Origin: Thraustochytrium aureum
Lineage: Eukaryota
Direction of reading: 5' to 3'
Length of the DNA stretch: 60,676 nucleotides
Assembly: GCA_012862495.1 (NCBI GenBank)
Contig: BLSG01000329.1
Span: forward strand, 208,808-269,483
Shown here piece after piece: positions 17,661 to 34,970 of this stretch. Position 1 is the first letter of the stretch, and every line of letters starts with the position of its first letter. The notes under the pieces are model-generated. The model was not told the DNA's origin. It saw nothing but the letters and a program-made list of their open reading frames with translations, and did not search any database. The position numbers were made by a program, and so were the translations under genes.

Positions 17661-18564
17661 TTAGCGGCGCTGGCGCAGACTGCGCTGCACAAACACCTCG
17701 TACTCCTTTTCAATCTTGCGCTCCTTGAGCCGCCTAGCGAGAGCAAGCTCTTTGTCAAGCAGTCGCATCGTGGCTTTGACGCTGGTCTGCGACTCGTCGT
17801 CCTGATGGCGGCTAAGGTCGTCCTTTTGGCTCTCAATACCGCTGATGAGCAGCTGCTTGAGCTCTGACGCCTCCACAGACAGCAAGGCGGCTTGGATGGG
17901 CGGCCTGGCGGTGGGCTGTCAGGTACGGAGTCCTCTCCCAATCGAGCGAGCACCGGCCCGCGAATCAACTTACCGTCCGCTGGATTTGTCCCGCTTGTCC
18001 TGGATGTTTCCGAGCGTGTCGTTCTTAACCCCCACGTAAAGGCCCTTGAACCCGCACGTTATGTATCCCTGTGCAAATAGAGGCACGCATGTCAGCCCCA
18101 CAAAACCCAACCTTGCAGGATTGCCAGCGCCAGAGAATCGAGCCACAACCTACCTCCCCGGGCTCCATCACACAGTCTTGCGAGGGCCATGCTGGCAAGC
18201 AATATTGCCAACGGCGCAAGATCTGCTCTACAAGCTCGTGCTTCGGTGTCGCTGGGCCGCTCGACTTCTCCGAAGAGGCTGCGACAGATGTGCTAGCCGA
18301 CTTTGACTTTTTCCGAGCGCGGTCCTCGTCGTCCGCGCGCACGCGCTTCTTCGACGTTGGCGACTGGGCGCTCGACGAAGCCTTCTTCTTTTTTTCTTTC
18401 TTGTCCTTGGCGCCTTTGGTTTTTTTCTTCGCGCCGCTCTTGCTTTTGAACTTGGACAGCATGTCTGCCAGCGTCAGGTTGTTGTCGCTGTCGCTGTCAT
18501 GGTCGACCTTCTTCTTTCGTTGCTGCAGCTGCGCGAGCGAGAGGTCGTCGTCCGAGTCGCTCAT
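17661..18564 (-). CDS. Uncharacterised 3-exon protein with Lys/Asp/Ser-rich N-terminus (exons 18564-18154, 18068-17974, 17904-17661)
   Basis: Introns GTAGGT...GCTGAC...CAG and GTAAGT...CTGAC...CAG. The spliced product reads ILRRWQYCLPAWP...GYITCGFKGLYVG(V)KNDTLGNIQDKR...RPPIQAALLSVEASELKQLL. It needs one extra G in the G-run near 18030. Confidence 0.7.
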
Positions 18565-18685
18565 TGCTGCTGAGCGCGCGCGAGAGCCTCAGAGTGCCCT
18601 AACGACCTGGCGCCGTTGCTTGCGCGAGATGCGCGCCTGCTCCTTGGCCGCTCGCGCTGCGTGTGCAACCAGAGCGCGATCCCCC

Positions 18686-18735
18686 CCTCCCTTCCTTCCT
18701 TCCTTCCTCCCTTCCTTCCTCCCTTCCTTCCTTCC
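18686..18735. repeat. Pyrimidine-rich (CCTT/CCTC) microsatellite
   Basis: ccctcccttccttccttccttcctcccttccttcctcccttccttccttcc. Confidence 0.85.
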
Positions 18736-19130
18736 ACCGCCCGCGCTCGCGCTCGCTGACTGTTGCTCGCACTCAAACCCAACCGTCGAACCTAACCCGC
18801 AGCTCTGCCCTAACCTGAGGAACGGAAACGCACACGCACGCACGCACNNNNNNNNNNNNNNNNNNNNNNNNNNNNNNNNNNNNNNNNNNNNNNNNNNNNN
18901 NNNNNNNNNNNNNNNNNNNNNNNNNNNNNNNNNNNNNNNNNNNNNNNNNNNNNNNNNNNNNNNNNNNNNNNNNNNNNNNNNNNNNNNNNNNNNNNNNNNN
19001 NNNNNNNNNNNNNNNNNNNNNNNNNNNNNNNNNNNNNNNNNNNNNNNNNNNNNNNNNNNNNNNNNNNNNNNNNNNNNNNNNNNNNNNNNNNNNNNNNNNN
19101 NNNNNNNNNNNNNNNNNNNNNNNNNNNNNN

Positions 19131-22100
19131 GCCCGCCACCGCAGCCGGCAGCAAGCCAGCGAGGAGCCGCGACGGGGGCGGCAAGAGCACCCGCTCAGCG
19201 GAACCGCCAACCTGGGCGCAGAGGGCGCTCACCCCTGCCGCGCACAAGCCCAGACAAGCAGGCGCCCGCAAACCCCGTCGGTGGTGCAAAACCCACCCCG
19301 GCAGCGAAGACAAACGGGGACTCGGAACCTCGTCGAGATGCCGCGTTTTCCAGCGCGAAACAGCCAACTAGGGCAGCAACTTCGGCCACGGGCGCGGCCA
19401 AAACACCGCGCAGCGGCCCTCCAGCGCAACGGGAAAGGTCGTCGTCGACGTCTTCGTCTAGCTCGAGCTCGTCCTCATCCACCTCCTCGTCGTCGAGCAG
19501 CTCGGACTCCGCGAGTAGCGGAGTGCTTTCACTGTCGTCGATATCGAGCGACGCCTTGAGCTCCGGCTCCACCTCCTCCAGCAGCAGCGCGCAGGGCAAG
19601 TCAGAAGGCAGCGCGTGGCTTGGCGGATGGAGTGGTGCACTCGGGAACAGAAAGTGGGCGAAAACAGTCGCTTTCGTGTCGCAGTGGACCTGGCACCTGC
19701 TCCCCCTCGTGTTTTTCATCGCGTGGGCGCTGCGCACTGCGCTTAGGCCTCGCTCGCCGCTCCCGGGCGTAGATCGCAAAGACATTGTGGGATACGCCGA
19801 CGGCGGGGCCACCGTGCTGCTTCGAAACCATACAGCGATCCTTGCGAATGGGACTGCCCGGTTCTACAACGGGACAATACGCTTCCCAAACATGACTCTG
19901 GTGCACTGCAAAGAGGTGCGGTATGAAGACCTGGCTGAGTGCAGCGCTTCTAGAGTCTCGCGCGACTCGAGGTACGCTTTGGAAGCGTACCTGGGCCAGC
20001 GTCCTGGATTAGTATCAGAAGCGGCGGTCGCAGACGTTGACGAGGGCGCCGACGGCCCGGCAGCCTTTTGCGGGTTCGTTTCCGACACCAACTTTGCCAC
20101 TTGGAGCGGCATGTCTGCATCTGGCGCGCCAGTTTTCTTTCCTGAGACCGACGAGGAGGTGGCGGACTTGGTTCGGCGCGTTGGCGACGCCGGGTGTAAG
20201 GTGCGCCCTGTTGGGGCTGGGCACAGCGAAAGCGGGATCGCGATTGCAGCTCTTGACGACATGTCTGTTGGTTTGTCGTTGGCCCGTTACCGTGCCGCGG
20301 CCGAGTCTGGCTGGAGCATTGACAGTTTTGCGCCCAATCCGAACAACGAGACGCACCCACTTGACGCCGCCGCCGGCCGCCTTCGCATAGAGGGCGGGCA
20401 TACGCTTCTCCGCCTGAACAGCGTCGCGCGACCTGTTGGCTGGTTTCTTCCGACAACACCTGCGAATTGGGCAACCACCGTCGGCGCAGCTGTCACGAGC
20501 ATGGTCTCCGGCTCCGGCTTCGGGAAAACCTTCCTCAGTGCATACGTATCTCGCCTTCGCGTCGTACTGGGAAGTGGCCGCATCGTTGAGATATCTGAGC
20601 CTCTGGAGCTGGCCATGTGGCGCAACAGTATGGGGCTTCTTGGCATCGTGTTGGGCGCTGAGTTTGCGCTGGAGAAGCGCGAGTTTTTCTCAATGGGGAC
20701 ACGGCGCACGGTCTTGCACCAGTGGAATCCGTGGTATCTCGACGCGGTTCTCGCACAGCTCCTTCCTGGAGCTGACGGCGCGGAGTTCATGTTCGATCCG
20801 TGGACGGACGAGCTGGCTGGCGTCGGCTATGTCGTTGCGGACCCGGGCTCGCGTCAGTCGATGTTTGGCCGCCTAGCCAGCGCAACCGGTCGTGGGCCCG
20901 GTGGGGGCCCTGCCCGGTTCGTGTCGGACGACGAGTGCACCTTCGACGTCCAGAAACTTGGTTGCGCATTCCCGGCCTTCTGCGAGTACCGGTTCCGATT
21001 CGGGGACTACCTCCCAGCTCAGTCATGCCGGCTCCGACGGCGACCGAATCCAGACAGAGCCAGCATCGAGCACACTTACGAGCAGCTCGGGCCCCTGATG
21101 ACCGAGGCAGCCGAGCGCGGCCTTCCTGCTCCGGAAGAAGGGTCGGTCCAGCACTGGTGGGACGCCGCATTGCAGCGCAGACGCCAGATGCATTACAGCG
21201 GACAGCGCGGGGGCGTCGACCTGGGCAAAGACGAAACCGTTGGCTGGACAGCCAACCTCGCCGCGGCTGTTGACGAAGCTCGCGAGCGACTAAACGACGG
21301 GTTCTGGGTGATCGGGTCAGCGAAGTCTGTCGCGCTTTGCTATATGTTTCCTGTGGAGCACACGTTCAAGGCGCTCGATGTGCTCCGCACTTTGATCCGG
21401 GACCTCGTAATCCGGAATGCTCCATTCCAGTTCCGCGACGCCCCGGTCCATGTCACTTTCGTTCGCCTCGAAAAATCTCAGGTGCTTCAACCAAAGGGCG
21501 TGCACGAGGGCGACGTTGTTAGGATCGAGGTCCGAGTCAACACTCCGCCTCCGCGAACTGGCGCGGCCTCAGACGGTGCTCAAGCCGCCTCGAGCGCCTG
21601 GAGGTTTGCGCTTGCCGAGTTGGAGCGGCGCTGGCAGGACGCGTTTGAAGGTGTGCCCATATTTCCGCACTTGGGCGGTGTCCACGGGCTGCACCAGTTC
21701 CGCGCGAGCAATAGCTCCAAGTCCGACTGGGCGCGGGCCCAATACCGCCGCATCCGCCGAGTTCATCGAGCTTTTGAGCGGCTCAAGGCGCACTTCGGAG
21801 TCGCAGTTTTCCGCAAACAAGGAACGCCGCGGGTTTGGGCTATTCGCGCAAGCACCGCCATCCTATGAGGAGCAATTTGGTGTGGAGGACCCGTCCAAAG
21901 AGATGCTTGCTGAGATTCAGGAGGAACTAGCTGCGGCTTCCTCCGAGGAAGAGTATGCCAGGCTGAAAGAGATGCATGACGCTGCCGCTGCTGAGGTTGA
22001 AAATGAGCCGGACTTTTTCGGCGACCTCGAGCATGAGCTCGTGCGAGAGGCCTACCGTACTCCACCGGAAGGGTTGCATCCGGAAGAGGGTCGCAAAGAT

Positions 22101-22532
22101 CAGGAACCGGCAGCGCAAAGCCTCCCTGTTCCGCTTGCCAACCCGCAGACGATGCGAAGCATGTTCACCAGAGAGCAATCGATTGCTTTCTTGAAGTATC
22201 GGCAGCGCTTGGACCCGGAGAACAGGTTTTGGGGTGGTGCGGCCACGCGCTACTTTTCTAAGGAAGACAAGCGAGCGGCTTCTGGACTCGATGACCCAGA
22301 TCTTTTGGAGGAAGACCTGCTCGTGCTCCGCATCAACGCGGTAGCGCAGGCAGTTCGGTTTGAAGAAGATTCCAGGAGGAGTAGTGCGATCACTGCTGTC
22401 GTACTCGCTGCAGTGGGCCTCGCTGCACTCAAGCTCCTCTTTTTCCTCATGGAGCGGCGCAAGCGCAGCGCTCGTCGCAGAAAAAAGGGTCGCGGCCGCC
22501 GTGGGTCTTCGTCGTCTTCCTCCTCCTCCTCT

Positions 22533-22567
<35 letters not shown>

Positions 22568-22601
22568 TTCTGGAACGGATTCTGATGGCTCCTCAGCCTG
22601 A
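19131..22601 (+). CDS. FAD-linked oxidase of the aldonolactone oxidase (ALO/GULO-like, VAO/PCMH fold) type with N- and C-terminal TM helices; start probably in gap 18848-19130; frameshift ~21700-21750
   Basis: FFPETDEEVADLVR...KVRPVGAGHS, TVGAAVTSMVSG, VSRLRVVLGSGRIVEI, SMGLLGIV, PHLG, then FLKYRQRLDPENRFW in frame 21417..22601. TM segments WHLLPLVFFIAWAL and AITAVVLAAVGLAALKLLFFLM. Confidence 0.8.
22505..22571 (+). repeat. TCN trinucleotide repeat encoding poly-Ser tail
   Basis: (TCG/TCC/TCT)n in frame at the 3' end of the oxidase gene. Confidence 0.9.
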
Positions 22602-22683: not shown

Positions 22684-23478
22684 TTACACGCGGCCTTGAA
22701 GCACCGCCGTGACGAGCGCCCTGCGCAACGACGGGCTCGCGGAGAAACCCGACACGCTTTCCTCATTCACGACACAAGCGACAAAGCGAGGCAAGCAGTC
22801 CCGCTCGAGCGTTGTGCGCGCCTCTCCCTGGGCTCGAGCAAAGAGATCCGCGAAGGCCTCGCTGCTTGGCTTGGCTTGCAAACGCGCATCAATCTCCGAC
22901 ACCACAGCAGGTTCGACACAGACCCAGCTCGGTGCTCCATCCTCCAAGTAGCGAGCAAAGATTTCGCGCGCTTGGCACCGCAAAACATCGTTGCCGAGGC
23001 CACGCCGAGCTGCGCGGCCCTCTTCTGGTCAAGAATGGTCCTGTACGCCTCGACGGAGAGCCAGAATAGCAGGTTCTCCGCACTGTGCTGGGCCTGCAGG
23101 AAAAGAAGCAACGGGCCCAACAGGTCTTGTCCTGCACAAAAACAGAGAGGTCGACCTCAGCGCACAAAACGAGATCAAGCTCGTGCTGGCGCAGTGCGGC
23201 CACCGCGTTGCCGCGCTCCCGATGTTTAGACTCGGGAGCGTCCCGGTGTGGCGGCTGGTCCTTGGCCTTGTCGCCGCGCCCGAGCACCGTCCTGGCCCAC
23301 GAGGTCTTACGCCTTGCAGCTGGTGCGCCCGCGTCCATGTGCCTGGCGTCGATTTCAAGTCCTTCCGTCTTCGCCCTGCCTCCACGCCTCCGCCTCCCTT
23401 CGGGGTCTGGCGACAAGCTCTCCGGCGTCGAGGGCGGTGTCGTTTGCCGCACGAGCAAAGTCGTGTCGGCAACGGGCG
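22684..23478 (-). CDS. RGS (regulator of G-protein signalling) domain protein; two frameshifts (~23115, ~22983); 5' end uncertain
   Basis: Joining three frames gives ...PLLLFLQAQHSAENLLFWLSVEAYR...AREIFARYLEDGAPSWVCV...LFARAQGEARTTLERDCLPRFV, the RGS consensus. A branch point plus TTTCAG acceptor lies at ~23479-23500; an in-frame ATG lies at ~23338. Confidence 0.85.
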
Positions 23479-23744
23479 CTGAAACGCATTAGTCAGCGAG
23501 CACGGCACGACGAGGTCCGCCCGCGGAGCAGCAGCGCCTCCGCCCGTGCGTCTCTCAAGAGCCGCTGTCGGGGCGGCCGGCTCTGCGCCGGCTCCAGCGG
23601 TCCCGTATCCGCTTCGCGCGAAGCAAGTTTGAGGGACGCCGGCGAGCCCACAGCACAACAGCTCTCAATCAAGCACGTGAGCGTGCAACGTGGCACCCTT
23701 TTTCGTTTTCTTCCAAAATAAGATGAAACTACTTACAACAGCAG

Positions 23745-23948
23745 CAGCAGTCAGCAGCAGCTGAGCAGGAAGGCGGCCCACCTGACGCTGCTGAGCGTGG
23801 GTACAACAGCACAAGCACATGGACGTGCACGTGGTTGCACCGTGGCACCCTTGTTGTTTTCCTTTTTCGTTTTTCTTGATGGAAACGAAGTACAGCAGCA
23901 GCAACTGCTGAGCAGGAAGGCGGCTCACCTGACCCTGCTGAGCGTGGG
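23745..23948. repeat. ~55-bp direct duplication, copies ~147 bp apart
   Basis: gctgagcaggaaggcggc(c/t)cacctgac(g/c)ctgctgagcgtggg at ~23760-23801 and ~23907-23948. Confidence 0.85.
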
Positions 23949-26900
23949 CGACTCGGGACGCGAATTTGAGCGAGGCGCTGTCGAAGGGCCCGCACCTTGC
24001 GCACCATGATGAATAAAGGATCCACCAGCAAGAGGCTCGGGCGCGGCGTGACTGTGCATGCGCGACACTACGAACCGGCACTGCTGCAACATGCGCCCGT
24101 ACTCCTCGTGAGAAATCGCAAAGGCCTTGTCGGAAATGGCTCCCGGATGACCTCCTAGCTGTTTGACGATCTCATGCCCTGCCACCGCGTCGAGAAGGTC
24201 GTAGCGTTGGCGCCCCGTCCCAGAGGCACCACCAGGCGAAGGGGTCGGCAGCATCGCCGGCTCCGCTTCGATGCGGCCGTGGTTGTGCGGCGAGAGACGA
24301 ACAAAAGCAGCGCCGCGTTTCGCGGAGACAGCGGGCCGAGTTGCAAAATGATCGCCGAATGCGCCAGGATACGGCCCGGCTTTTCACGGCAGGTGAGCAG
24401 CAAACGCACCCCCTTCGTCTCATCTAAGAGACGTCCAACAAAGTGCCGAAACAAACTTGAGGGGTGCGCGAGCTCGTCGCAATGATCGAGCACAAGAACA
24501 AATTGACGATAGCGAATCAGGTCGAACAGGTGCTCCATCCGCGCCTCGAGCGACGCCGATGCGGCATCCGCGCCGAGCAGACCCTGCGCAGTCGCCGACC
24601 CACCCTGCTGCCGCGCGGCTGCGCTATCCACGGTTTTATCGAGAAACATGTCGACAAGTCGCTCCACCTCGCCAACGCCTTCGAGTCTAAGAAAGAGCAC
24701 GCCTTCCCGGAACATGTTGCGGTCGCTTGCATAGTTTGCCACCGCGACGGCAACAGAGGTTTTGCCGACCCCGGCTGGGCCAGTCACCGACACGATGCGG
24801 CGGCGACGCACCGCGTCCAGGACCGAGTACACGTCCACGTTTCGCCCGACAAAGTCCTCAGGCACTGCAGGTGCGTGGCCGCCGCGCCACAGGCTGCGCC
24901 GCCTCTCATAGCNNNNNNNNNNNNNNNNNNNNNNNNNNNNNNNNNNNNNNNNNNNNNNNNNNNNNNNNNNNNNNNNNNNNNNNNNNNNNNNNNNNNNNNN
25001 NNNNNNNNNNNNNNNNNNNNNNNNNNNNNNNNNNNNNNNNNNNNNNNNNNNNNNNNNNNNNNNNNNNNNNNNNNNNNNNNNNNNNNNNNNNNAGTTACGT
25101 CAACTGCCTTTTTGGCGATCTCAAAGGCTGTCCGCACCGTGTCGCCAATCGCGAGCGACAGGTAGAAAGCTCGCGTGAACGCTTGGGCCGCTTTGTCGAG
25201 GATTCGAGCTCCGACTTGCACACAGACAACGTGCGCCACGCCGGCCTGTATGAAGGCGCGCCCAGCATACTCAGAGTGGCACGCAGACACGAAGACGAAT
25301 TTTACCTTGCTGGCAACCCCGTCAACGCCGCCACCGGCAAGGCGTCGTAGGTTTTCAGTCGAGAGGACCTGCACGCCACCCGACTGGTCCTCAAAGAGCA
25401 GGGCGTTTGGGCTGCCGTGGCCCGAATAGTGGATTGCCCGGCACCGCATGGTTGCCTCGCTGCGAAGCCGGTCGGCGGTGGCAAATCCAAACGACAGATC
25501 AATATCACGCGATGCCTCGACAAACGTTTGCCAAAGGATGTCGCGCTCGCGCTCGAAATCGATACTCTCCACAGGCTGCAGCCGCCCTTGCGCGTCTCGG
25601 GCAGCGAGTGGGATCGAGAACATGACTGAGAGCCGCAGCCGGTCCCCTGCGACCTCCACGGCGTCTCCATTTCCGCTTGCTGGCCTAGCAGTCTGCGCAA
25701 GCGGCGCCTCACTGGTCGAAGGCGGCTCGTTCGTGGGCGGCACCTTTGGCGAATGCTGAGGCTGGCTAGCCGCGGGACCGACGCTAGGTGTCGAGGCGGC
25801 CATCGACTGTTCGGGCGTCGCTGGCTGCGCCACCTCGGCACCGGCTTGGGCAGCGCTGGCACCTTGCTCCGCATGCGGGAAGCTCTGTTGTCTGGCTCCC
25901 AGCTTCAACGGGTTTGAAAGCAATCTGCTTCGATCTGTCGGCTCCTCCCTGCTCGAGGTGTGGGCCCCGTTCGGGAGGGTCAGGTTGAGCCACACCAGAA
26001 TTCGCGTCGCCGTTTGGGCCCGCCGCAACTCTGGGTTGCAAGCCCGTGACTGCACTTGAGGAATTGGCCGCGCCCGCGGCCGATGTAGACGGCTCCTCCG
26101 CGCTGCCACCTTGGGCGCACGTGACCGTCTCCGAAATCCAGCTCTGCCTGTTCACAAGGAGGGCGCGCTCAATCTGCTCCAGGTCCTGCGGACGGATGCC
26201 CGGGTTGCCCTCGAGCACAAGAAAGTGGAGCTTTGACTTGGCGACGGCGAAGCGCAGCTCCTTTCCTAGTGCCTCACCCAACGAATTGAACGACAAGTCG
26301 AGCTCGAGGAGAGCGGCCGCCCCAGCCACGCACTCAAGGACAGCCTCGTCGATCACGGGCTTGCGAAGTCCATTTGCGCTCAGCCCGAGGGCCCGAAGTT
26401 GCGAGCCCCCACTGGCGATCCATTTCAGAATCGCAGCAACAGCCCCCTCCCCAAGACTATTGCCAGAAAGGTGGAGTTCCGAAAGCGGGCCTTTCACCTC
26501 TGGGTCCAGCAAACCTTGCTTGGCTTTGCCTCCGATGAGTGCGGCGAGCGTCTCTGTTGCGGAGACCCCGATGGCGTTGCGCGACAAGTCGAGAGACTCG
26601 ATTGTGCCGCACTGGCCGGCGCAGCAGAGCGCATCCAGGACCCGCGCACAGCCAACATCCTTCAAGTTGTTCCCAGAAAGATCCACCCACTTGAGCACGT
26701 GCTTCGGGCGTGGGCCGCCTAGTTGACCAAGCGCAATTCGCGCCGGCCCGGCTGGCGCCAGCAGTCGTAACAGAGGCTGCAGGTCCGAAACACGGAAGCC
26801 GTTGTTTCGGATTCCAAGCCCAAGCACAGAGAGATTGTTGTGCCGGACCTCAAAACAGCTGGCGATCTCCGCCAAGTCGCTGCGGGACAAAACGCCGTCG

Positions 26901-29900
26901 AATGTGCACCATAGCACGCTGCTCGGCAAGTTGCGGACTATGTTCGCGTAGAGGTCGCCAGTGTCCAGGTGGCCGGGGTCAGACGGAGGCTCCGTGTTGG
27001 AGAATGCAACCGAAGTGATCACCGGGAACCTAAAGAGGCAGTCCATCAGGTTGTCGTGAAAGTCACTCATCCCCGGGGCCGCTTGGCAATCCCTGATGCA
27101 GAGCGACCAGGGGCGCTGCTCGTCCCCTTCGGCCGAGGTCGAGAGCTCGCCGCGGCCAAAAGCTGGTCCTCTGTCTTGACCAATCACGTCGACGTCGATC
27201 TCGCTAGAGGGTTGCAAAGGGAAAGCCTGCAGACCACTGGTGGCAATCTCGCCCGCGATGTGCTGCTCTTGCGCCGAAAACTTGGCGATGAGCTTGTGGA
27301 TGATACGACCAAAGCGAAACGACAAATCCCGCCCGTTCGGGAGCGTTATCGCGAGAGGAAGGCGCGGAAGGACGGTGCTAACATCTGCCCTTTGAATACG
27401 TCCAGCATCTTCAGCAGGCGCAAAGTAGGACACAGGAAGCAGGCAGCGTCGGCGCTGGAGGAGCGAAGGGCACTGGGCCTCAAAGGCGACACGACAGGCC
27501 GCCAACATGGCCCGCACGACCCCGCGGGTGCCTACGAGCAGTTGCTCGCACCCACTCGAGTCCACGGCTCGAAGCGAGAATCGGCTCGCTGGTCCAGCGA
27601 CAGCGCACGAGCCGGCAGCGCTCTCTTCAGCCACAAGCGCACTAACGAACGCAGCCGCGCGCTGCTTGCCGTCAAGGCCTGTTTGCCCGGACTGCTTGGC
27701 AAACAAATACCTGGCCAGTACGGTCTCTTGCTCCACCAAGTGCGGAGCGCTTCCGGGGGGGCTGAACACGCGGACGGCTTCGTCGTCGTCCGAGTTGTAT
27801 GAGACGGATGCACGCAAGCCGCACCCGATCCACCGACGCAGCCAGCGAGGCTCTGCGAAGGCAAGCTTTTTGCCTGTCAGGTGCCCGAGAAGCCGCGCGG
27901 AGGTGGCCGAGAGCTTGCCTTGTGGCGAAGATCCCGACGGCACCGTCCGCTGGCCGCTTGGGACCGCCGCAGACTGGCTCGCGCCGTGCTCAAAGTCGAA
28001 GAGATCTTCAATGTGAGCAGGCAGGCCCGATGTCCCACCCAGGGTTTCAAGTGCAGCCTCCTCGGTTTCAGAGTGCCCTTGCTTGTGTCGGCGCCTCCAC
28101 CGCGACGCACGGCGACTCGCCGTCGGCTCGTCTTCGCCAGCCTCGAAGAATGACGGTGCACTGTTCGCGCGCTTGCTGACGACAACCACCCCGTCCACCT
28201 CCTCGCCAACCCCAGCGGCGCCACGCGCTTGGGGGCGGAAAAGCGACATTGTTTCCAGCAGCCCAGAACCGGCAAGAACGGCCCAGAAGGCCCTCTGGAT
28301 ACGCGGGTCGCGAAGCTGAATTCGCCAGGTCGCACAGGTCGCGGCGAGCGCGACTGCGTCCATGACTTGCTGATGCTCCAGCGAGAGCATCATGATGTGC
28401 CAGTTAAAGAGCCCGCGAACATCCCGCCCACAAAGCTGCACGTCATTGATGCCCCCAGAGAACCCGAGCCCGACCAGGACGTCCTCAGCGCGAAGCTGGA
28501 GTTGCCTGTCCGGGTCGCCACCGACGGAGAGCTGCACCAGGTGCTCGAGCGCGAGCCGTGCGATGTCAAACTTGAACGTGCTTGCAGACGGGCATCGCGT
28601 GATGGAAGCTAGCACACGGCACGCTTGGCACTGAATGACAGAGGCGGGGGAGCCCAGGAGGAGGATGCTGATCAACAGGATCTGCTCCACGCGATCCAGA
28701 AACATTGCAGTCACGCGCTGCCAGAGTTCGACCGCCGGGCCAGCGGCCCCCGTCGCCTCGATTCGGAGATCTAACGGGCTGCTCACGGTTCGGCCGAGCT
28801 GCGGCGGAGTCACGCCGAGCGCGCCTGAAGGTCGCCGCAGCCCCGGCCTGCGGTACCCCGACTGCGGCCTCCAACANNNNNNNNNNNNNNNNNNNNNNNN
28901 NNNNNNNNNNNNNNNNNNNNNNNNNNNNNNNNNNNNNNNNNNNNNNNNNNNNNNNNNNNNNNNNNNNNNNNNNNNNNNNNNNNNNNNNNNNNNNNNNNNN
29001 NNNNNNNNNNNNNNNNNNNNNNNNNNNNNNNNNNNNNNNNNNNNNNNNNNNNNNNNNNNNNNNNNNNTTGCTTGGTGAGCCACTTCGATGTCCGCGCCCT
29101 GTGGCTCGCGCAAATGTACCTGTGTCAAAGCGGCTGTCCCTTCGCGCTGATCGGACGTGCGCCCCTGCGAACCTCGCTCTTTGCTCTGGGCAATGTCCTG
29201 CGCCACAGCTGGCTCGCCAACAAGTCCGTACAGCGTGCCAAGAGCCCGGACAGCATACTCGAAAACGCCGCAAACCGCCACACTCGCTCGCGTATCGAAC
29301 GAGGCGTTTGCCAGATTGCCGAGGACAAGCCAGCTATCTATTCGAACTTCCCGATCCTGCGAGCTGAGGTCGCAGGAAGGCTTTTGAAGAGGGATTTCCT
29401 GGACCAGGCCAAGGACAGCGCTCGAGACGTTGGCGAGCTCTAGCACGTCGCAAGCCTTCGCGGCCCCCTCTGTAAGGCCCAAGACGGTCCGTAGCGCATG
29501 CAAGGATACGAAAGCGTCCGAGCGCACTCCACAAAGCCTAGCCAGGAGCTTGCCAAATTGCGGTGAGTCCAGGAACGGCGTCAACTGGTCACGTGGCAGC
29601 TCTCGGCAGAAATTGTGCACCGCAAGCGCGACGTATCGCAGTTCGAGAGAAACCCCATCCAGTGTAGAGGGAGCGGCGTAGCTCGTAACTGCCGAATTTG
29701 CGGATCGCTGGCCGGTCCCAGGGAAGAGCGGTCCTGGTTCGTTCGCGATCCCAGCCGTGCTAGACGAGGATATGCTTCCTCTGGCAGAGTCACGCTCCTC
29801 CCGCGCAATTGAAATGATGTCGCGGCGCGAGAGGCGGCGGCCAGAATTCGAGAACCGTCGACGGATGTCGACTCGGCTCGCATTGAGGGCGACACCACCA

Positions 29901-32900
29901 CTCCCTTGGCCCGAGTCGGACGTCGAGTTGGAGGCACCGCCGCCGCTTGAATGGCGCTGGAAACTTTGGGCTTCCTGTGGTTCGAGGTCAACAGGAGTCT
30001 GCTGCTCGAGCTGGACCGGCTCCCTCGCTGCGTTCAAGGTCTGCTCTGCGAGCGACAGAAGACCCTCCATACCTGCGCGGCCACACAGGAGCTTGCGGCA
30101 TGGCTGCAAACCAGACAGCGAAGTGAAGCATGCCAACGTCACGCACCGCACGTTCGCAGGAAGCTCCGCCCGCTTTGCGAGCTCGATGAGGGCTGGTAAC
30201 GCACCGGAACTGACGAGCTGCGCCACAATGAAGCCAACGACGACGAGATCCACCCCGAAATCGGCCCCCGCATGCGGGGCGTCCGGATCGATCTCGACAG
30301 GGGGGGCCGCGCCACTTGTGAGCCAGTAGAGGCTCGTTACCGAGTGGAGAACGAGCTCTGGGTCGCTTCTGTCCAAGAAACTGATCAGCGGCGGAAGGAT
30401 CCCGCTTTCTAGGAGGCCCTGATGCGCGGCTGGGTGCTGCGCGAGTAGCGATATGGCAAAGGTCGCGAGTTGCCGCGACTCGTTCCAGGCGATGCGCATC
30501 TCAAGGAGCTCTTCCTCGTCCTCGGCGCCGAGCGATCCGCCTGTGCCCATGCTGTCCATCCCAGCGCGGGGAAGTTGGCTTGTGGTTACGTCAACGAGCA
30601 ACAGAGCGGCTTCCTTTGTTAAACGCGCAGCCCATGGCGCTGCCCGGGCCTCTGCCAGTGTGATTCCAGACACTGAACGCCGCCGCGGGCCATTGGATCG
30701 CTGAAATGGGTCGCACTCCGTCCTTCTCCCCGAGGCATTCGAGACGCTGGTGCGAGATTGGCCGCCGCTCGTTTCGCGTACTAGCGCACCAAGGTCGAGT
30801 GCTCCGTGCTTAGCGCCAGAACGACTTGACGGGCCGCACTCGCTTTCAGACGCGGCGTCTTCGACGGCGTCGCGCGTGTGGAAGATGAGGCAAAGGTTTG
30901 CAAGTGCCAATGCCGCTTCGCGCTGCGTGAATGCGCATCCGTTTGGGCGGTCCGGCCAACTCGGTTCCTCGCAGCAGTAGCATGGCTGTTCGATCAGCAC
31001 GCGACAAGCCGAAACGACAGAGCTGAGCTCAGACTCAAAGGCCTCAGCAACTCTGGAAGGGTCTAGGGCGGGACTGGCCCCGCCCTGCCCAAGACCTCTC
31101 TCGCTCGGTACGTCGACCCAGGATCCTGACGCCATTGCCACGATTGTCATCGAGATAGCGTGCTTGAGCTTCGGGTTGCTTGCGGCGCGGTGCCCATTGA
31201 GAACAGCAGCAAGCGTGCTGATCGCCCCGCCTTGGCATGCGTCGATCTGGCTCAAAGTGCGGATTTCAGCACTTCTGTGGTGGTCTCGCACGAGATAGCT
31301 CAGTACCCGGGCTGCGTTGAGCTGGGCTTGCTCGTCGCCGGAGCGAAGGAAAAACAAAAGCTCTTGCACGCTATCAGCGGTCCCTTCGTGCACCCCGTAT
31401 GCTCGCAGCGGGTCGTTGTCCTCTGCATCCTCGTCTTCCATCGCGGCCCCACCTCCTGGTGGCGGGCTTCCAGGTTTTGGGGACTGTGATGTCTGCAACT
31501 CGGGGCTTGTGTGCTGACCGCCCATCGCATCGTGGATAGCTGTCTGAGCTCTCCCTCCTAGTTGCGGAGCAGGTTGGCCAGCGAAGGTGTAGTCTTGCTC
31601 AACATTTGGCATATCCACGGCCGGGCTGATGCCTTCTGCAGGCACTGTCCCAACAGTAGCAGACCCGCCGGGTCGCTCAGATTCGCTAAGACCAACTTGG
31701 GGTCCCGCATTAGGGGCCTCGAGCTCGGGCGTTAGGTTTTTGACCACGCGTTGCGTTTGGTCCAGCACAGCAAAGAGGCGGTCATTGAGTCCAAGTAGGT
31801 CAGCTAGAGCCTCGTCCCTCTTGGCTGCGCAAATCATGTTGTACAGCTTGTGGCGAGCTACCTTGGTCTTGCGCTCCAGCTCAGAAGCGAGCTCGCGCGC
31901 GAGCCCAGCGTTGCGCGGGAGGGTGTCGACGATAATTCCCAAGTGAGCCTCCATTGCCTCCATCTCGTCGCTGATGCTAACGATGCGGTCCTCGTCGCAG
32001 GAGACCGCAGCGAAAGCAGCAAGCTCCCCACGTGGCGCACTGGTCTCCCTAGTCCTGGGCGCTTGGCTGGTCGCGGACTCGCCCTGTGAAACGTTTAATG
32101 CGCTCGTCCAGCTCTGCGAGCCCTCACTGACAGGTTCAGGTGCCTCCTCTGCCTCGCCGAGCGACACCATGGAAGCAATCGTGGATCCAAGCGTCGAGGC
32201 TAGCTCAGCGGCTGTGTCAAAGTGTGTGCGCAGCCCAGCTGAGCCAAAGCTGCCTGAGTCGTCACCTACAGATTGCGGCGAGGCGGAGCTCCGCGCGGAA
32301 ACGCTTTGCGCGGTCCCAGAACGCCGCCCCCGCTGGCCCTCGCGAGGTTCGGCCTCATCACTGCCAAAGTAGCGCTGGTGTCCTTTTTTAAGGGCTTTGA
32401 GGATGAGCTTGCGCGGCATGCGCGTCGCTCGATGAAGTAGGTCGTTCGACTGTACCATGCCGTCGGGCTCGGAATGCGCTCCGTCGAAGGAAAACCTCCA
32501 GGCATCTGTACCCCAGGCAGCCCCTCGGGCCGTGCTAGCGGTAGACTCGTCGTCAATTGCAGCGCGGTTAGGGGCAGTGGGCGGTGAAGCCGACGACGTT
32601 GCGCTTGTCACGCCTTCAACTGCGCTGGCCGCTGCAGCTGCCGCCGCGGATGCAGCCTTAGTTACAGCAGAGAGAGCCAGCGAAGGGGACAGCATTTCTG
32701 CATCCGGAGAGGGCGAGGCAAAGGCAGGGTCGAGCGACGCTGGCGCTATCTCTGCGAGCGAGTCGGCAGTGTGGCCAGTCCATAAGAAGCCAGACCCGAC
32801 CCCAAAGTTTCCGATGATCACGACGCCGGGTGACCTCACCCCAACTGTTGGCCAAAGACAAGCAGGGAGTCCCGCGCGTTCAGTACCAGTGAGCGTGCAA

Positions 32901-33661
32901 GCTATGCCAAGCATCGCGCCGTTCCTAGTGAAGAACACGGCACCTCGTGCCGGGTTCCATCCACAGCCGACAGTGTCATCTGCTTCGAATGGAGGCGCAA
33001 ACGAGGCTTGCTCCCCGTCAACGGACGAGGCCGAGCCAGAGTAGAAAGAGCCTCCGCTGTGCAAGCCGAACGTGCCAGCTGTCCACCCTGGATACGGCGG
33101 CGTGTTTGGCGAGGGTTCNNNNNNNNNNNNNNNNNNNNNNNNNNNNNNNNNNNNNNNNNNNNNNNNNNNNNNNNNNNNNNNNNNNNNNNNNNNNNNNNNN
33201 NNNNNNNNNNNNNNNNNNNNNNNNNNNNNNNNNNNNNNNNNNNNNNNNNNNNNNNNNNNNNNNNNNNNNNNNNNNNNNNNNNNNNNNNNNNNNNNNNNNN
33301 NNNNNNNNNNNNNNNNNNNNNNNNNNNNNCCGGCGTTTCCTTTTGATTCCATCAGGCCCGCTGTGGAGTCGCGGCCGCCGACGCGCCTTGGCTTGGCCTG
33401 TCGTGACGACGGCCAGAGACAGATCGAAAGTAAGCTTCCTGGCGCGACGCGTTGAAGAGCGCAGCCACCGGGTAAGGGAAGGCGCTGCAAGTGCCAGCGC
33501 GCTGTAGAGCGAGCGCGCTGTGGAGCGAGCGCGGGTGGCCGGCTCCCCGAGCGCGTCTATCTCTGCCGTCCTGGTGGGACCTGGATTCTGAGCACCGTGC
33601 CACCTTGGGTGACGGAGAAGCTTGTTCGTTCGATGACTTTTTGACTGCGGCTCGTCACCAT
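23925..33661 (-). CDS. Giant multidomain NLR-like protein: SPRY - GAT-like - ARM repeats - RNI-like LRR - CHAT (caspase-fold) protease - NB-ARC/STAND NTPase
   Basis: SPRY (YPGW, GLHS.G, PPFEADDTVGCG, VFFTRNG, LWPTVG, GNFG) at ~32780-33450. GAT-like LADLLGLNDRLFAVLD at ~31760-31980. ARM-like helices ~28450-31380. LRRs (VDLSGNNL, LDLSRNAI, LHLSGNSL, LGLSANGL, LDLSFNSL) ~26150-26950. CHAT IHYSGHG and VFVSACHS ~25093-25640. FVGR, Walker A GPAGVGKT, Walker B VLVLDHCD, LLLTCR, LGPLS and GGHP ~24140-24865. The model spans three N-gaps and frameshifts at ~33430, ~25880 and ~24305; the start is uncertain. Confidence 0.8.
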
Positions 33662-34358
33662 CAGGCGTGCAGGGAAGAAAAGCTCGTCCGATAATGTGGA
33701 CTCAGGCTGGGCGAAGTCGAGAACCTGCCAGTGGTCCCTTCGGCGTCATACCTAGATGACTGAGCAGGACCACGAGGGAGGGGAGGAGGGTTTGCCAGTG
33801 CCTTGTCACGGTCGAGTAGTAGTAGTGGATAGAGTGAGTACTCTACTAGTACATGGGCCTGGCCTACATGAGAACTTCCTTGATTGATTGAGACACGACT
33901 GTGGTTTAACGAGCGCAACCGACGTCCCACAGACTTTGCGCGCATGCAATCTCGCGGTTGGGTTTGGAGCAAAGGAGGGCGCGGTGCTGGCGCTGCAGCT
34001 CCGCGTCACAAACTCGTTTGTTCCAGAAATCGAGCTCTTCTGGAGAGGCGTAGCTCGACTTCTGGAGAGCGTGGCCGCACGGCCGGTTTCGCGAGGAGGG
34101 CCAGGTCAGCCTCGTAAGCAAGCTCAGCCTCAAGTTGACCTTGTACCGATCGGGGCTGGGCCATTCATTCATTCAGTTACCCTGGCGTTTTCGGAAGCGA
34201 GATGTGGTGGCCCTGGCCGAGCAGACCGAAACACAAGGACTTGGAGAAAGGAAAACCCTTGTTTTTCTTCAATTGTTCATGAAAAGAAGGCAATGTGACG
34301 ACAACAAACGCCCTCCAGCTGTGCTGCCACCCGTCGCAACCCGACAACCCAATGGCAA

Positions 34359-34970
34359 TCAAAACTTGTGGTCCCGGTAAAACGTCAATGAGGTGAGAAG
34401 CATGAGTAGGACCTCGAAGGCAATCAGGACCATTCCCATACCATTCAGTATCCTGTCCACCTTTAGGACGTAAGTCTGCATCTGGAAATAGAACACGTGG
34501 ATCACAACAACGCCGATCGCAAAGAGAAAGGACCAGACCAAAGGACCGATTTGCTCCGTTTTGTTGCCCTTCGTAGCTGCATTTGCGATCGCAAGTTTAA
34601 CATCTGTTAGCCTCCTGGGTGGGATCGTCCCAACGCTGAGGCTGGTTGAGCTCGCAAAACTTACCCTGGAAAATCCGAGCATTCTCAAGCCCAAGGTACA
34701 CGAAGAGGAAGAACAGCTCGGTGCCGAAGACTCCGTCTGCATAAAGAAAGGTATTTGCTGTGCAAATGGTTTCAACATGTCAGCGCGTGCAAGAGTACGC
34801 CCCTGGTTGGACAAGGCCATCACGTCCTCCATGGCAACGAGGCCCTCCCTCCTTCACTTACACTTGTAGATGAACACTGCCAGGCTGATGCTGAAGAAAA
34901 GTACTGCGAAGGCCTTGTTGAAGAACAGTAAGATTTGCAGCGGAAGAGAAGAAAGCACTTGGTCCCCCAT
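34359..34970 (-). CDS. TMEM216: Ciliary transition-zone protein TMEM216 (TMEM17/216 family), 139 aa, exons 34970-34862, 34757-34665, 34576-34359
   Basis: Manual splice through two GTAAGT...CAG introns gives MGDQVLSSLPLQILLFFN...FIYK / ...YLGLENARIFQ / ATKGNKTEQ...QTYVLKVDRILN, matching family motifs LSSxPLxI, GxKGN and QTYVL. Exon lengths sum to 420 nt. Confidence 0.9.

Follow-up and report, generated by a model that had tools for sequence, protein, structure and literature searches.

One gene on the minus strand of the window, a stretch of 60,676 nucleotides from Thraustochytrium aureum (contig BLSG01000329.1, positions 208,808 to 269,483) that was analyzed as a whole, very likely encodes, judging from its sequence, a single chain of about 3,145 amino acids. 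In this chain a CHAT protease and a STAND NTPase are preceded by about 2,580 residues carrying SPRY, GAT, ARM and LRR modules. We put the probability at roughly one half that the protein is a scaffold-controlled signalling protease that would be switched on by clustering, and not a classical NLR. The original prediction had described it as an NLR-like immune receptor with an NB-ARC domain. The NTPase is a truncated STAND consisting of the nucleotide-binding domain (NBD) and helical domain 1 (HD1), not a whole NB-ARC, and the protein is not a full NLR, because the segment following HD1 was absent from all LRR-type proteins of the family and the Walker A lysine is replaced by arginine in many relatives. 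Two NLR features are missing, the winged-helix segment and the C-terminal superstructure repeats after the STAND. The features of the gene, numbered by position in the window, are the following.

23925..33352, minus: whole gene, SPRY-GAT-ARM-LRR-CHAT-truncated STAND, about 3,145 amino acids after mending two one-base errors and two gap lengths
33350..33352, minus: likely start codon, presumed from the first in-frame ATG; the RNA-like run has no cover here
32760..33329, minus: SPRY domain of the RanBP9/10 type (Pfam E 3e-5; RanBP10 structure 5jia E 3.5e-13), its first part inside the N gap 33119-33329
31748..32002, minus: GAT three-helix domain of the GGA/TOM1 type (Pfam E 1e-4; family profile)
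28238..31432, minus: ARM/HEAT-like helical solenoid with low-complexity inserts (Pfam Arm E 2e-6), containing the N gap 28877-29067
26120..27550, minus: small alpha/beta element followed by about 11 LRR units of the ribonuclease-inhibitor type (AlphaFold2 model, Foldseek; Pfam LRR E about 1e-3)
25642..26119, minus: low-complexity linker of about 160 amino acids, holding the extra base 25973
25093..25641, minus: CHAT caspase-fold protease (Pfam), its last strands inside the N gap 24913-25092
24913..25092, minus: N gap between CHAT and the NTPase, 163 letters in the X2 contig
24302..24870, minus: STAND NBD with FVGR, Walker A GKT, Walker B VLDHCD and sensor-1 TCR; one base is missing behind 24302
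24051..24301, minus: HD1 with GxP (GGHPGAI, 24135-24155), after which the chain ends without a segment in the winged-helix position or sensor repeats
23925..23927, minus: stop codon TGA, the same end as in two complete transcripts of relatives (P0116 and P0118)

In the assembled window, the gene is spread over three frames and contains three N gaps of 211, 191 and 180 bases. SPRY, GAT, Arm and LRR lie in one open frame of 2,590 codons (33556-25787), CHAT in a second frame and the P-loop NTPase in a third. Contigs from public runs were aligned to the region (X1 and X2 are run labels; X2 is RNA-like by guess only, and its lack of cover over 32296-34111 and 23216-23669 was not used as evidence). 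One X1 contig (530 nt, 25734-26264, depth 4.5) has one base fewer at 25973. Deletion of this base opens the frame from the end of the LRR through CHAT, and the extra base creates a false stop at 25784. X1 and X2 agree on an additional base behind 24302; with it, the NTPase continues into the tail bearing GxP and on to the TGA. The gap between CHAT and the NTPase was crossed in frame by the X2 contig and the gap in SPRY by an X1 contig with 238 letters. For the gap 28877-29067 the true letters were not recovered; the first 30 letters of a loose X2 end were in frame there and resembled the sequence of a relative. A codon-usage model trained on seven other open reading frames (ORFs) of the window changed its best frame near 25970 and near 24300, and two neighbouring genes are likewise disrupted by single-base errors (one at 21797, the other at 22998 and 23121). 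Errors of one base in the assembly most likely account for both the stop at 25784 and the broken frame near 24302.

The relative P0116 from Mucochytrium quahogii (MMETSP 'type:complete', 2,466 amino acids) was colinear with the window gene from SPRY to the stop, with 78% identity in CHAT and 56% in the NTPase. P0118, a complete transcript of 2,809 amino acids, displayed the same layout. These transcripts, the corrections from X1 and X2 and the codon usage agree with the single chain of the original prediction, and the chain ends after HD1 in the window, in P0116 and in P0118, in keeping with its description of N-terminal repeats and nothing recognisable behind the NTPase. Of the extent it gave (23925..33661) the stop held and the start did not: translation from the ATG at 33661 would end after 34 codons in the assembly as it stands, or after 102 with the indel of X1, and the first in-frame ATG is at 33352. 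It had also allowed that the stop at 25784 might be real and the two halves separate transcripts; the X1 contig, the frame test, the codon usage and the complete transcripts of the relatives speak otherwise. A tandem duplication of about 150 bases at 23684-23948 (50-nt copies 92% alike, spacing 147) overlaps the stop codon and the 3' end.

The protease belongs to the CHAT family as judged from its Pfam match (E 2e-8, 34.3 bits against a cut-off of 24, on 26148-24787) and from a dyad aligned and modelled at caspase-fold positions. The dyad codons were located where they had been predicted, His (CAC) at 25417-25419 and Cys (TGC) at 25279-25281. When the family profile was compared with the PDB, SAVED-CHAT (8tl0) and AfsR were the best matches, and the His and Cys of the window aligned with the SAVED-CHAT dyad, which the accessible part of the preprint numbers H375/C422, an offset of 20. 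The model of the relative P0007 (predicted TM-score, pTM, 0.81) superposed on 8tl0 with Z 20.2 and a root mean square deviation (rmsd) of 2.7 over 185 aligned residues, and packed CHAT and NBD as one unit. Conservation was assessed in the 150 best relatives out of 1.84 billion representatives, ranked by CHAT-STAND profile similarity. The His and the Cys were each kept in 149 of these 150.

The order SPRY-GAT-ARM-LRR-CHAT-STAND NTPase on the minus strand was reproduced by Pfam as first proposed, and all of the proposed NTPase motifs were found, with FVGR at 24842-24853, Walker A at 24758-24781, Walker B at 24476-24499, sensor-1 (LLTCR) at 24386-24400 and GxP in HD1. The sequence thus contains the hhGR, Walker A, Walker B and sensor-1 motifs and the HD1 expected of a STAND protein and lacks the winged-helix segment. 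Pfam analysis of 25096-24158 gave AAA_16 (1e-10), nSTAND1 (2e-8) and NACHT (1e-6), all above cut-off. NB-ARC (3e-4) reached 20.7 bits against a cut-off of 23.5, and 29.1 bits in P0116. Of the domains for which the original prediction had suggested a profile check, SPRY, GAT, Arm, LRR and CHAT were matched and NB-ARC stayed below its cut-off in the window; NACHT, nSTAND1 and AAA_16 score as well as or better than NB-ARC. The best PDB sequence match of the NTPase was AfsR (E 5e-9), and Sr35 and Apaf-1 also matched. In structure comparison, the P0007 model matched CED-4 (Z 16.5) and Apaf-1 (Z 16.8, rmsd 4.6, 216 aligned), the latter only over chain residues 103-348 (end at 347-348), which we take to be the NBD plus HD1.

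With the error behind 24302 mended, the stop codon follows the GxP proline at a distance of 72 codons. From 23 of 24 bacterial-type relatives a profile was built for the post-HD1 segment, presumably the winged helix (WHD) by its position and by STAND anatomy. Of the 231 family proteins it matched 38, which include the 23 rows used to build it; the ciliate protein P0150 was matched at 8e-23. No match was obtained in the 94 LRR-type proteins (fragments and near-copies included), in the 11 SH2-type proteins or in the window's three downstream frames. Of the 150 best relatives, 105 have K at the Walker A lysine site, 30 have R and 15 another residue or a gap, and R was present in five of the 18 longest. 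FxGR, the Walker A glycines and GxP were kept across the family. A Walker A lysine changed to arginine usually keeps nucleotide binding and impairs hydrolysis. In Apaf-1 and plant NLRs, the winged-helix and sensor parts hold the protein in a closed ADP state and sense the ligand. The family shows a STAND protein retained over a long period while lacking the winged helix and sensor considered indispensable to the NLR switch. A Cys occupies the Walker A lysine site in the relatives P0294, P0299 and P0316.

In the N-terminal arm, a profile of the GAT position built from seven stretches retrieved GGA1, TOM1 and GGA3 among its best PDB matches (E 1e-4 to 5e-2), mixed with unrelated coiled coils. 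GAT domains of the GGA/TOM1 type bind ubiquitin. The AlphaFold2 model of 28870-26102 (pTM 0.73) contained helical repeats, a disordered insert and about 11 LRR units. In Foldseek the LRR model was matched alike by NLRPs (NLRP3, NLRP9), NOD2, ribonuclease inhibitor and axonemal proteins, therefore the LRR fold is uninformative on immunity. A predicted complex of the LRR with the CHAT-STAND part of P0116 scored 0.29 against a mark of 0.34, the alignment not being used, and was taken neither for nor against an interaction.

A search with the CHAT query returned 81 relatives. Named members with the LRR-CHAT-STAND end came from Mucochytrium, Skeletonema, Platysulcus, Telonema and Aureoumbra, and the layout is thus met again in diatoms, a pelagophyte, Platysulcus and Telonema. 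The full-length P0098 of the Skeletonema cluster (2,374 amino acids) also carries SPRY (E 5e-9 with a SPRY profile made for this analysis). Among the 150 best relatives, 18 have at least 1,500 amino acids ahead of CHAT; all 18 contain this LRR and the dyad, SPRY was detected in seven with that profile, and all end at most 127 amino acids past the CHAT-STAND module. Identity among nine diatom-type relatives was 0.95 in CHAT, 0.85 in the NBD and 0.82 in the LRR, where most strand positions were 0.89-1.0 conserved. Because the layout recurs in distant protists and the LRR faces are conserved, these alignments point to an old and slowly changing gene.

Sister layouts included SPRY-SAM-CHAT-STAND, FHA-CHAT-STAND (oomycete), CHAT-STAND-SH2 and forms with a kinase or RRM. 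The SPRY-SAM-CHAT-STAND proteins (P0054, P0055, P0057, P0061 and P0075-P0079) have SAM where the window protein has ARM/LRR. SAM is a polymerising domain and as such would fit activation by clustering. Another family without the post-HD1 segment is arranged as CHAT-STAND-helical region-SH2 (P0066, P0069, P0071, P0073, P0074, P0144, P0287, P0296, P0313, P0332 and P0334); P0144 gave a STAT-linker match (E 1e-5) and P0313 is from Mataza. A CHAT protease fused to a STAT-like SH2 end would link proteolysis with phosphotyrosine signalling in protists. In two long proteins, P0310 and P0321, the CHAT-STAND unit or its NTPase apparently occurs twice.

A CHAT-domain search of metagenome and genome contigs found no relative, the search being an insensitive one for exact patterns. 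In the ESM Atlas, the relative P0089 gave one weak lead (0.77) to a bacterial CHAT cluster. NCBIfam and PADLOC assigned no family to P0116, and PADLOC yielded weak P-loop matches only (mad8, IetA) for the NTPase and none for CHAT. No description of a SPRY-GAT-ARM-LRR-CHAT-STAND family was found in the literature searched, subscription journals and supplements being outside the search, so that a supplementary architecture table could list it; the accessible part of PMC8195603 does not mention the family.

The closest non-protist relatives are bacterial CHAT-STAND-TPR proteins, and this kinship is evident at the sequence level. A search with P0058, a TIR-CHAT-STAND-TPR protein, returned a tight CHAT-STAND-TPR group with named members from Desulfobacterales, Anaerolineae and Chloroflexi, whose CHAT is 39-47% identical to that of the window. 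Phylogenetic analysis against these bacterial homologues, as had been proposed with the first description, was a quick maximum likelihood tree of 77 chosen rows (LG+G4, SH-aLRT only), in which the outgroup did not fall on one side of a branch and unnamed rows were labelled bacterial or eukaryotic by architecture and similarity. The window protein fell inside a protist-type clade of 40 rows (support 100), paired with P0116 (71% identity over 354 columns), a grouping that points to a thraustochytrid or a relative as the likely source, and the inner order roughly followed the host groups. Support was weak at the forks where the bacterial group, the ciliate forms and the SH2 forms attached. A bacterial donor of the CHAT-STAND unit is likely from these comparisons, and a likely route could thereby be traced from a bacterial immune-type protein to eukaryotic signalling. 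The ciliate-type members P0150 (Moneuplotes crassus), P0146, P0147 and P0153 keep the post-HD1 segment and the bacterial motifs LDNCE and GHPQAI, and therefore look intermediate between the bacterial and the truncated forms.

The bacterial CHAT-STAND-TPR proteins (P0058, P0120-P0142; uncharacterised) share with the window protein the CHAT subfamily (HYSGHG, SAC), the order of CHAT followed by STAND and similar Walker and GxP motifs. In these bacterial proteins the post-HD1 segment and the C-terminal TPRs are retained and the N-terminus carries nothing larger than a small TIR or EAD7, whereas the protist protein lacks both post-HD1 segment and TPR and has about 2,580 amino acids of SPRY-GAT-ARM-LRR in front. 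The NBD-HD1 fold is common to Apaf-1/CED-4, plant NB-ARC NLRs and AfsR-type STAND ATPases. Unlike these, the protist protein has no winged helix, no second helical domain and no C-terminal WD40, LRR or TPR, its protease is fused in cis and its repeats lie ahead of the effector. SAVED-CHAT of Haliangium ochraceum is the best solved match of the protease, with the dyad aligned, but it is only about 20% identical, belongs to a CRISPR/CBASS locus, is activated by cA3 on its SAVED domain and has neither a STAND nor a solenoid arm. Separase is a very large eukaryotic protein with a helical-repeat (ARM-like) arm ahead of a caspase-fold cysteine protease. It differs in having no STAND, SPRY, GAT or LRR, and the separase family gave no match in any Pfam scan. 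CHAT-STAND fusions as such are already known in bacteria and in fungal NLRs (PMC10197012). According to the accessible part of that source, the fungal CHAT-NLRs, which activate gasdermins, likewise fuse a eukaryotic CHAT effector to a STAND NTPase but differ in their ANK/TPR/WD40 repeats and gasdermin gene clusters, the comparison being one of descriptions.

For a clustering-activated signalling protease, the following sequence of events may be proposed. The CHAT-STAND unit would derive from a full effector-STAND-TPR protein that lost the winged-helix segment and the TPR sensor. The N-terminal arm may then have taken over control. Its SPRY and GAT domains would bring the protein to a partner that displays a peptide or to ubiquitinated cargo, and its ARM/LRR part would attach to a fixed partner within the cell. 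The fixed partner is proposed because the LRR strand positions are conserved in the nine diatom-type relatives and 21 of the 28 base differences listed inside the gene are synonymous (40 of 94 rows covered). The nucleotide-bound NBD-HD1 would serve as a putative assembly surface and not as a cycling ADP/ATP switch. Clustering would rigidify the CHAT domains as in the filaments of SAVED-CHAT, which is activated by oligomerisation according to the accessible part of the preprint (bioRxiv 10.1101/2023.06.23.546230). Once clustered, CHAT would cleave one particular host protein belonging to a pathway of stress, quality control or cell death.

Several points weigh against this proposal. The relatives were gathered through their likeness to CHAT or CHAT-STAND, a selection that favours intact dyads and the integrity of both domains. 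In the window copy the Walker A lysine is canonical and Walker B is acidic, so that ATP may still be hydrolysed. The six GAT stretches from outside the window were picked by eye, and the GAT profile trained on the window reached only E 0.83 in one distant relative and drew no match from the rest. Finally, a single X1 contig of depth 4.5 corrects 25973, and the window itself may derive from the X1 sample; orthology with P0116 and P0118 is therefore the strongest independent evidence for one chain.

In a more far-reaching form, which we regard as tentative and rather doubtful, this would be an ancient protist protease family descended from a bacterial CHAT-STAND-TPR immune receptor and rewired through SPRY-GAT-ARM-LRR to read ubiquitin and host partners. 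It would act as an apoptosome-like initiator of stramenopiles and relatives, uniting sensor, hub and protease, in reversed order, in a single chain, and would stand next to sister forms coupled to SAM, FHA or STAT-like SH2 domains. Regulated cell death occurs in diatoms, thraustochytrids and their relatives, and metacaspases make up most of the candidates known for it. The present family adds a conserved caspase-fold protease whose dyad is intact and which carries its own control domains; as it occurs in several lineages, its role is directly testable.

A separase-like housekeeping protease is an unlikely but serious alternative. Here the helical arm would position a substrate or inhibitor, the remnant of the NTPase would be structural, and the protein would act in the cell cycle, trafficking or quality control without oligomerisation. 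The family is old and slow with CHAT as its most conserved part and an NTPase that is degenerate in many relatives, the SPRY is of the RanBP9/10 (CTLH/GID ligase) type and the GAT of the GGA/TOM1 type, and CHAT and NBD pack together in the P0007 model, all of which suit such a function. However, the family-wide retention of FxGR, the Walker A glycines and GxP would be expected if nucleotide binding matters, and the closest characterised CHAT, that of SAVED-CHAT, needs oligomerisation.

An inverted NLR-like immune receptor is improbable on present evidence. In it the LRR/ARM arm would fold back on the NTPase in place of a C-terminal sensor, detect a pathogen or a tampered guardee and trigger CHAT-mediated death. 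In its favour, the closest relatives outside the protists follow the canonical effector-STAND-TPR plan with TIR or EAD7, the LRR fold matches include NLRP3, NLRP9 and NOD2, and the CHAT-STAND unit is shuffled with SAM, FHA, SH2, kinase and RRM in other protists; CHAT also occurs in fungal NLRs adjoining gasdermins, as far as the accessible part of PMC10197012 describes them. Yet the post-HD1 segment is absent in 94/94 LRR-type proteins, one layout was kept from thraustochytrids to diatoms and Telonema, and the LRR is equally like ribonuclease inhibitor and axonemal proteins. A Pfam scan of 33 window ORFs turned up no gasdermin or other death effector and, in line with the original prediction, no evident substrate gene. 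The conserved LRR strand positions also argue against an immune receptor, but a guard-type receptor could have conserved LRRs as well, so that LRR conservation alone is no refutation.

Two genes or an assembly chimera, in which the LRR protein would stop at 25784 and CHAT-NTPase would be a gene of its own, would suit the assembled stop, the three N gaps, the fact that among the contigs listed none spans the whole gene and the absence of a listed X2 piece across 25974-26028, but is highly improbable given the complete single-chain transcripts in relatives, the 18 of the 150 best relatives with long N-terminal parts and this same LRR, the agreement of X1 contig, frame test and codon usage on one extra base, and the indels of the same kind in other window genes (21797, 22998, 23121).

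Downstream of the protease gene, a separate RGS-domain gene of about 218 amino acids is located at 22684-23340 (minus strand), with two one-base errors (22998, 23121) corrected by other runs. Its RGS domain (22687-23153) was considered as a C-terminal exon of the protease gene and rejected, since the complete transcripts of relatives stop at HD1, no RGS match was found in the relatives scanned and the domain has its own ATG near 23340. The upstream neighbour at 34359-34853 (minus strand) gave a Transmemb_17 match, presumably of the TMEM17/216 type of the ciliary transition zone, and is probably unrelated. A FAD_binding_4 gene at 18050-22598 (plus strand) is split by the extra base 21797, which is absent from X1 and X2. 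As one-base assembly errors are frequent, other split genes from this genome should be doubted. The regions 1-21400 and 36000-60676 of the window are of the housekeeping type and nearly intron-free, with no defence island; the neighbours in the window include SART-1, DUF3089, Nrap, a phospholipid-translocating ATPase, an LRR protein, an ankyrin-IQ protein, GH5, a cNMP-binding protein and an ABC1 kinase.

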